This document shows positions 19,115 through 19,690 of a stretch of 56,511 bases of DNA, piece after piece (the first letter of the stretch is position 1; every line of letters starts with the position of its first letter). Below the pieces are notes generated by a model. The model saw only the letters and a list, made by a program, of their open reading frames with translations, had not been told where the DNA came from and made no database searches. Source of the stretch: Patescibacteria group bacterium (lineage in GTDB: Bacteria > Patescibacteriota > Minisyncoccia > Phycocordibacterales > UBA918); contig JAIETH010000001.1 in the NCBI GenBank assembly GCA_019745315.1, positions 259,295-315,805 on the forward strand, in the 5' to 3' direction. Made by a program: the position numbers and the translations under genes.

Positions 19115-19690
19115 ATGTCACGAAAAGTATTTTACAGTTTTCACTTTGATAAAGATTCACAGCGTGCAGCGCAGATTAGAAACAGTCATGCGATTGCCGA
19201 TGTTGATGAGTACGGTGTCATTGATTCAGTAGATTGGGAAGAAATCAAACGCTCAGGACCTGATTCGATTAAGCGTTGGATTAATGATCAGCTTAAGTAC
19301 ACTTCGGTCACGGTAGTACTGATTGGTGCTGAGACATCTGAAAGACAATGGGTACAATATGAGATTGAGCGTAGCTGGGAACGTGGAAATGGATTGGTCG
19401 GAGTAACAATTCATAACGTAAAGAATCTAGCAGGAGAAACTACAAGCGCTGGAAAAAATCCATTCGATAAACAGGTATTAGCTGACGGAACCCCACTCTC
19501 TGCTGTCTGCAAAGTTTACGATTGGGTAGCTGACGGTGGTTTAGCAAACTTAGGTAAATGGTCTGAAGAAGCCTTTGAAATTCGTTCAAATTATAAGGGT
19601 AATCCTGCTCTAAAGGGTTCACCAGTTAAAACTACAACACCTACACCAGTACAGACGATTAGCAACCCTTCACGACCATGGGCACTGTAG
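19115..19690 (+). CDS. Thoeris ThsB-like TIR protein (DUF1863/MTH538-like) with extended C-terminal tail
   Basis: RKVFYSFHF..D, IKRWI..QL..TSVTVVLIG.ET..R.WV.YEI..S...GNGL.GV. Catalytic Glu is present. Confidence 0.9.
   Translation: MSRKVFYSFHFDKDSQRAAQIRNSHAIADVDEYGVIDSVDWEEIKRSGPDSIKRWINDQLKYTSVTVVLIGAETSERQWVQYEIERSWERGNGLVGVTIHNVKNLAGETTSAGKNPFDKQVLADGTPLSAVCKVYDWVADGGLANLGKWSEEAFEIRSNYKGNPALKGSPVKTTTPTPVQTISNPSRPWAL

Follow-up and report, generated by a model that had tools for sequence, protein, structure and literature searches.

Type II systems for antiphage signaling based on cyclic oligonucleotides (CBASS) that carry Cap2 and Cap3 are said, from the work of Ledvina in 2023, to conjugate their signaling enzyme C-terminally. 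As described in the available parts of a 2024 study by Kruger (PMC11153139), this conjugation proceeds via a C-terminal Ala or Gly and regulates immunity, the last residue in Cap2 systems is typically Ala or Gly, and the substitution A331E abolishes immunity, which provides a precedent for a C-terminal Ala as the conjugation residue. In the E2-CBASS of Serratia marcescens (CdnG-E2; Yan et al.), the accessible text of the preprint reports a cyclase ending in Gly406-Glu407, from which a stand-alone ubiquitin-conjugating (E2) enzyme alone removes Glu407 (10.1101/2022.05.25.493364). The same E2 is described, again in the portions available, as coupling itself to Gly406, by a thioester at Cys101 or an isopeptide bond at Lys159, and as able to build cyclase chains that activate signaling, by a catalysis that relies on C101 and requires His87 and His152 (10.1101/2022.05.25.493364; PMC12948482). 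Thoeris operons with Cap2 and Cap3, in which the ThsB tails have a conserved Gly, appear in the available text of a December 2025 preprint (10.64898/2025.12.03.692087). Here, we analyze a 56,511-nucleotide stretch of DNA from a Patescibacteria group bacterium (hereafter the window; contig JAIETH010000001.1), in which the gene for a ThsB-type TIR protein with a C-terminal tail overlaps that for a stand-alone E2. By analogy with E2-CBASS, we consider it fairly probable that positions 18691-20397 constitute a Thoeris-like system under lone-E2 regulation, composed of a membrane effector, the ThsB TIR and the E2, in which the E2 trims the last residue of the TIR and conjugates it.

As far as the accessible descriptions of E2-CBASS go (10.1101/2022.05.25.493364; PMC12948482), the locus resembles that system in that its E2 stands alone, lacks an E1 or JAB partner and has one catalytic Cys together with two His, in the position of the E2 gene directly after that of the signaling enzyme, and in a flexible C-terminus ending in a small residue plus leaving residue(s), here Ala190-Leu191. 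It differs in that the signaling enzyme is a ThsB TIR and not a CD-NTase (a nucleotidyltransferase of the cGAS/DncV-like kind), no cyclase having been found in the genome, in the size of the E2 (239 amino acids with a SEC-C-like knuckle, compared to about 160 for SmE2), and in the proposed attachment residue, which is Ala (or Ser in homologues) instead of Gly. In addition, the cyclase is described in the same accessible text as having a folded E2-binding motif of a helix and a beta-sheet, whereas here there is a linear tail only. Profile searches of the whole genome yielded a single TIR and a single E2, whereas Prok-JAB was not found, ThiF gave nothing over the cut-off and the CdnG profile A4 had no match anywhere; a cyclase search with PF21654 was also without a match, but its control matched nowhere either. 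Because no cyclase was found, the system is not a CBASS, though it probably works like one, and the absence of E1 and JAB sets it apart from the Cap2/Cap3 form of Thoeris. With the latter it shares, according to the available preprint text, a TIR with a putative C-terminal conjugation tail beside CBASS-derived ubiquitin-like transfer enzymes, but those operons encode an E1-E2 fusion (Cap2), a JAB isopeptidase (Cap3) and a Gly tail, whereas only an E2 and a PW-Ala-x tail are present here. Type II CBASS likewise conjugates a signaling enzyme through its C-terminus, but is dependent on ATP and E1 and uses a free C-terminal residue.

The TIR open reading frame (ORF; 19115..19690, forward strand) encodes 191 amino acids ending ...KGNPALKGSPVKTTTPTPVQTISNPSRPWAL. 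Residues 6-103 match the Pfam family ThsB_TIR (PF08937, 1.5e-24, over the cut-off), residues 1-158 match the PADLOC models ThsB1 (6.4e-59) and PDC-M50B (1.5e-58), and relatives in the PDB include a 160-amino-acid TIR (8wcf_A, 1.3e-28) and Thoeris ThsB (6lhy_A/9b7d_A, 1e-26). Glu83, which lies in a WVxYEI motif and which we take to be the catalytic Glu of ThsB, is invariant in alignments A2 (10 sequences) and A3 (58 sequences). Judged by these matches, the locus has a ThsB-type TIR of a Thoeris-like signaling system. Both models of the uncharacterized PADLOC candidate PDC-M50, a membrane protein plus ThsB-like TIR, are matched (7.4e-44 and 1.5e-58), and the two genes often occur together in the sampled loci; ordinary members are without tail or E2 (0/76 assessed). 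Since the PADLOC ThsB and PDC-M50B models end at residue 158, the tail lies outside the fold, and because tailless relatives stop at the position equivalent to Tyr160, the extra piece comprises residues 161-191 (19595-19687).

A first-pass annotation of the sequence had proposed that this TIR carries a disordered, P/T-rich tail whose last codons overlap the E2 start. Such a tail is indeed present, with 6 Pro and 5 Thr among its 31 residues, and the two genes overlap by 13 bases, the E2 ATG lying inside the codons of Pro188 and Trp189 (CC-ATG-G). The interval originally assigned to it (19567-19690) begins too early, as it includes the end of the last TIR helix; the tail itself covers 19595-19687, followed by the stop codon at 19688-19690. 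In an AlphaFold2 model of the TIR (58 sequences), the core is folded, only one isolated strand-type residue is found past helix 142-158, and the predicted local distance difference test score (pLDDT) is 37 at residues 171-180 and 52 at residues 181-190. Elsewhere in the protein, a three-residue insertion (DEY in ADxDEYGVID; TIR residues 27-39, 19193-19231) is common to tailed TIRs and not found in tailless relatives; its loop has a pLDDT <50 and may be a clade-specific surface, e.g. for the E2 or for sensing.

Homologues of the TIR formed 336 clusters (90% identity) at E <= 0.001, and the tail counts for homologues given here derive from the best 120 of these 336. A Trp was present within the last 40 residues in 117 of the 120, including one sequence (P0116) in which it is not part of the motif, and the other three have a PH-type ending or none. 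The tail consensus is (G/A)P(T/A)(V/I)I-x-N-P-x-x-P-W-(A/S)-x. Counted from the Trp over the 117 tails, Pro occupies positions -1 (106 tails), -4 (112) and -10 (81), Asn position -5 (75), Ile position -7 (92) and Val/Ile position -8 (85). The position after the Trp (n=115) is occupied by A (69), S (23), C (8), G (5), V (5), L (2), T (2) or H (1), such that A/S/C/G account for 105/115. Of the 120 homologues, 89 have exactly one residue beyond this small residue, 5 have none and 22 have 2-9. Where the last residue is a single one, its identity differs greatly between tails (R 23, Q 17, L 13, with 13 further kinds making up the rest). Endings that extend 5-10 residues past the Trp mostly represent a second subtype, F-x-P-R-x-P-W-(S/C/G). 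I182, P185, P188 and W189 are invariant in alignment A3. The preceding linker is variable, both in length and in sequence, among homologues of 182-216 amino acids. In sequence terms, tails conserved up to a sharp stop one residue short of a variable C-terminus have the pattern of a processed end or cleaved extension. Of the 2533 stop-to-stop ORFs of at least 80 amino acids in the whole 771-kb genome, none but that of the TIR terminates in PxxPW plus 1-4 residues. The tail is thus beyond chance, being both kept in the family and unique as an ending among the ORFs of the genome. The tailed TIR family spans phyla.

Loci for comparison were sampled with profile A2, which is limited to the TIR core in order to keep the choice of loci free of bias by the tail. 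This yielded 14 genome, 80 metagenome and 13 viral contig loci (107 in all) with 116 TIR ORFs that have a complete core, and after 31 were dropped (duplicates or <600 bases downstream) 85 were assessed. An E2 overlapped or directly followed the TIR in 6/6 tailed cases, whereas none of the 79 TIRs without a PW tail had an E2 in the locus (Fisher p 2e-9, a value that overstates independence because the tailed TIRs form nearly a single clade). These 79 comprise 76 tailless TIRs and 3 with an unrelated 66-amino-acid hydrophobic extension, and the PxxPW tail is accordingly not equally common in TIRs without an E2. The window together with L097, a locus from a second small genome whose TIR tail reads ...VVITRPPSKPWLAK, brings the tail-E2 pairing to 8/8. 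All 13 viral TIR loci are tailless, and a scan of IMG/VR with the E2 alignment found no relative. The three extension-bearing TIRs are encoded by the second TIR gene (about 4400-5104) of loci L020, L021 and L022, where 66 residues with a hydrophobic stretch take the place of the PW tail; each is paired with a second, tailless TIR, and there is no E2.

The same ending was found on cyclases that are linked to an E2. A scan for E2s of 401 genomes in the phylum of a Pseudomonas genome identified a real E2 in 4 of them, and a like scan in the phylum of the window did so in another 4 (see below). Excluding the E2s in genomes G000 and G371, there are six, each encoded after a gene that matches PADLOC cyclase models; these upstream genes form three groups by best model. 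The six cyclases end in ...VNISRPAKPWRSGE; ...TVATQPWAK; ...TIISKGGATKPWRK; ...NITQQTSPWRTEE; ...IKSNIPYKPYS + 13 residues; and ...VQIRPHRC, i.e. in PW (4), PY (1) or PH (1) followed by 1-13 residues (6/6), and the tail is hence not absent from E2-linked cyclases. In 117 of the 120 best relatives of the first of these cyclases, the final 12 residues include a Trp, nearly always as P(R/K)(V/I)xI...KPW(R) + 1-4 residues, and Vibrio cholerae CdnG (9woo_A) ends ...SSDPKPWF + 2 residues. SMODS cyclases without a stand-alone E2, taken from the same 401-genome set, have a PW ending in 0/17 cases (17 of 18 loci; L158, of 206 bases, was left out). Five of these 17 controls (L157, L159, L160, L163 and L165) instead end ...P-V-x-x-N-T-F-F-G + 0-4 residues, presumably a Cap2-type conjugation tail, and the tails of type II CBASS in this respect look different from those described here. 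With the same ending on cyclases that have a lone E2 and not on the controls, the handle follows the E2 and not the enzyme family. The tail attributed to such cyclases in the first-pass annotation, often a PxxPW motif and with Gly or Ala as the conjugation point, thus holds for the lone-E2 class in its motif, but the residue after the Trp is mostly Arg, not Gly/Ala, in the PW-type cyclases. The available text of the 9WOO paper (PMC12804361) does not discuss the tail, and a phage protease paper considered as evidence on it (PMC12991175) was set aside, as the part available concerns an internal loop.

The E2 matches seven PADLOC CBASS E2 models (best 1.8e-36) and has no Pfam family match and no E1 domain. 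His93 (LHxNP), Cys102 (CLCVKQEE), His150 (EYSHGGLG), C200, C202, C211 and H212 are invariant in 27 aligned homologues, one of which carries the Pfam domain SEC-C. The E2 model (pLDDT 89.9) matches almost only E2/UEV/RWD folds in a wide VIA search, with Z 9.1 for UFC1 (root-mean-square deviation 3.5, 117 residues aligned), Z 8.4 for the S. marcescens CBASS E2 8hsb_B (3.7, 132 aligned) and Z 6.6 for Cap2 7to3_A. A sequence search of the PDB with the E2 gave chance matches only (E 0.6), and Foldseek with the model gave no match at E <= 0.001, though the probability for UFC1 was 1.0. From the invariant H93/C102/H150 and the predicted E2-like fold, the enzyme looks catalytically competent. In the phylum of the window, an E2 profile scan matched 95/401 genomes, comprising 4 real E2s and 91 matches to a SEC-C-like knuckle only, which mostly sit at the end of ORFs of about 820-1200 amino acids that we take to be SecA-like. 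As the profile matches SEC-C-like knuckles elsewhere, the C-terminal knuckle of the E2 is of the SEC-C type.

Co-folding of the E2 with TIR residues 155-191 resulted in an interface score (ipSAE) of 0.50 (runs 0.50, 0.51 and 0.50), compared to 0.09 for the best of 3 controls; the runs share at least 68% of contacts, with a partner pLDDT of at least 50. The mark applied is reached by 58/80 solved complexes and 2/110 mismatched pairs, and at ipSAE <=0.60 only 7 of the 80 solved complexes reach it, as do both passing mismatches, counts that hold only roughly because the alignments were self-built. As the similar complex 8hsb has already been solved, the pass may reflect likeness, and the model lends weak support to the E2-tail pairing.

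In the mechanism that we propose, the last 11 residues of the TIR, TISNPSRPWAL, would serve on their floppy linker as a handle recognized by the E2. By analogy with E2-only CBASS, Cys102, aided by His93 and His150, would attack the peptide bond after Ala190, with Leu191 leaving, such that a TIR~E2 thioester would form without adenosine triphosphate (ATP) or E1. The acceptor of the TIR would then be a lysine, belonging to the E2, to a further TIR or to a protein of the cell. Such tethering or chaining may set the threshold for the assembly of TIRs into active signal producers that consume nicotinamide adenine dinucleotide (NAD), and the signal would open the membrane effector and abort infection. 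The peptide bond as the energy source would also explain why at least one residue is kept past the attachment point in lone-E2 substrates. The earlier suggestion that the tail is an E2 substrate handle is supported by the genomics, namely by the strict co-occurrence of tail and E2 and by the same ending on E2-linked cyclases, and the suggested loss of the terminal Leu to expose Ala agrees with the mechanism published for E2-CBASS. What we infer by analogy is the conjugation itself: that the tail is cleaved, through which residue the TIR is attached and to what acceptor, and how this affects TIR activity. A bolder extension, which we put forward tentatively and with some doubt, is that the (V/I)I-x-N-P-x-x-P-W-(small)-x ending might be a portable, self-sufficient ligation tag for stand-alone E2s acting as ATP-independent transpeptidases, with energy from the peptide bond of the leaving residue. 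It would have moved between CD-NTases of three PADLOC model groups and ThsB TIRs, and in the case of TIRs it would promote chains of covalently joined TIRs that seed a multi-TIR active site, a new on-switch.

Several observations weigh against trimming and conjugation of the TIR by the E2. In most PW-type cyclases the Trp is followed by Arg, an odd acyl donor that leaves the attachment site open, and in the available text of the E2-CBASS structure paper only the terminal Gly is described as conserved across E2-linked cyclase tails (PMC12948482); in view of both, the exact attachment residue is still a matter of conjecture. The published E2-CBASS case uses Gly-Glu, as opposed to Ala-Leu here, and the PDB alignments of 8hsb_A stop at residues 365 and 376 of 407, where the tail of S. 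marcescens CdnG is not readable for PW. Five TIR homologues end at PWA/S without a leaving residue, where strict transpeptidation predicts otherwise, and the co-fold score came without a contact map placing Ala190 at Cys102. In a quick tree, 7/8 tailed TIRs fall into one clade (support 93) and the eighth, on a long branch, lies with them in a clade of 23 rows (97); the tailed TIRs may be of single origin, and their co-occurrence with the E2 may represent one or two evolutionary events.

Pairing of tail and E2 could in principle come about without any chemistry, if the tail were a non-covalent docking peptide to which the E2 binds, holding the TIR inactive or recruiting it, with no cleavage or conjugation. 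We regard this as unlikely. Co-occurrence and the weak co-fold pass (0.50 vs 0.09) do show coupling and not chemistry, and the (V/I)I stretch resembles a strand that may be able to join the E2 sheet. Yet Cys102, His93 and His150, invariant in the 27 E2s, would be needless for a mere binder, the conservation stops one residue before the variable C-terminus in the manner of a processed end, and the homologous E2-CBASS enzyme has been shown, in the portions available of that work, to cleave and conjugate. It is improbable, in our estimate, that the E2 instead processes the tail at another bond, e.g. after Trp189, such that the small residue leaves first or that processing only releases or activates the TIR without ligation. 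Nearly all tails have at least one residue past the conserved Trp, the five homologues ending PWA/S would fit cleavage after the Trp better, and the cyclases have Arg after the Trp and then unrelated residues. To our knowledge, however, there is no precedent for a bulky Trp as an acyl donor, which counts against cleavage after Trp189, and the prevalence of A/S/C/G at the next position (105/115 TIR tails) argues in the same direction, as does the attachment of known E2 and Cap2 substrates via Gly or Ala in the accessible parts of the sources.

The near-monophyly of the tailed TIRs also means that the correlation with the E2 could be inherited, in which case the tail might serve a role apart from the E2, such as sensing of phage proteins, contact with the membrane effector or degradation, the E2 link reflecting shared ancestry. 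This appears highly improbable, given that unrelated enzymes, namely cyclases of three PADLOC model groups, have the PW ending too, and precisely where they are followed by a stand-alone E2; moreover, the membrane partner also accompanies tailless TIRs, and the effector is hence not what the tail is for. We attach hardly any credence to the idea that the PW has no role in the protein and results from translational coupling, through the E2 start codon (CC-ATG-G) that overlaps it. The E2 ATG does lie inside the Pro-Trp codons in 5/14 loci (the window, L001, L015, L097 and L132; a sixth has TTG there), but in 9/14 it lies elsewhere and PW/PY/PH is still kept, which largely refutes this explanation. 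The start codon also cannot explain the motif because Pro, Asn, Ile and Pro, 4-10 positions before the Trp, are conserved too. Trimming and conjugation of the TIR by the E2 is thus the reading that we favor.

Table 1. Features of the TIR-E2 locus and adjoining genes (positions in the window).
Feature	Position	Strand	Details
DUF2188 protein, 75 amino acids	18454..18681	+	Pfam DUF2188 1.4e-18; PADLOC PDC-S16 6.6e-27; directly 5' of operon
Small membrane protein, 140 amino acids, candidate effector	18691..19113	+	PADLOC PDC-M50A 7.4e-44
ThsB-type TIR domain, residues 1-160	19115..19594	+	Glu83 codon 19361-19363; Pfam PF08937, PADLOC ThsB1/PDC-M50B
P/T-rich linker, residues 161-180	19595..19654	+	Variable, unstructured in model
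Putative C-terminal handle TISNPSRPWAL + stop	19655..19690	+	Trp189 19679-19681; Ala190 19682-19684; Leu191 19685-19687
Stand-alone E2, 239 amino acids	19678..20397	+	His93 19954-19956; Cys102 19981-19983; His150 20125-20127; SEC-C-like knuckle C200-H212 20275-20313
218-amino-acid protein (X218)	20397..21053	+	Start overlaps E2 stop; no Pfam, PADLOC or PHROG match

The genes of the locus are listed in Table 1. In 60 of the first 94 loci, a homologue of the membrane protein is the TIR's neighbor, regardless of whether the TIR is tailed, and L097 has one beside its TIR as well (2.7e-49). The protein belongs to no Pfam family, and the Atlas clusters that it matched are all unnamed; we consider it a candidate effector of the TIR signal. 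A DUF2188 gene adjoins the TIR in no other locus examined, other tailed TIRs included. The DUF2188 protein is possibly an accessory or a separate small defense gene, and the available text of the December 2025 preprint, a TIR survey, names a DUF2188 protein as a putative Thoeris effector (10.64898/2025.12.03.692087). On the other side of the E2, a 46% identical homologue of the 218-amino-acid protein is encoded beside the TIR-E2 operon of L097 (2258-2893, minus strand) in the opposite orientation, and is missing at L015, the closest relative; the protein is probably not a core part of the system. The downstream genes X218 and X183 were considered as parts of the system and rejected, as they are not conserved across loci.

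The region directly 5' of the defense operon (12536-18442) encodes an integrase (phrog_95, 1.9e-64), both terminase subunits (large and small), a fusion of ParB with a DNA methyltransferase, and an S24 repressor, phage-type genes that place the operon at the edge of a prophage-like element. In L097, an S24-like ORF precedes the operon as in the window, in the order S24-like ORF, membrane protein, TIR and E2. The system may travel with the lysogeny module of the mobile element. The genome comprises 771 kb in 15 contigs and is 98.8% complete; 400 genomes sampled from the same phylum measure 0.5-2.1 Mb. The organism is probably one of the ultra-small bacteria of the CPR type.

While Thoeris with Cap2/Cap3 is already in print, an E2-only form with a PW handle is apparently new. 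The literature search found no report of either the form or the handle, though the supplementary tables of 10.64898/2025.12.03.692087 may list E2-only cases. Among the matches listed, no paper joins E2-CBASS with Thoeris or ThsB and none concerns PDC-M50, and a search on TIR, E2 and Cap2 had the TIR survey preprint as its sole relevant match.

[quoted passage not shown] The PW tail would provide a simple sequence mark for predicting the target enzyme of an orphan E2, which makes the mechanism directly testable with two proteins of 191 and 239 amino acids. Should the ending also prove to be a portable tag, further E2 substrates could be found by sequence alone.

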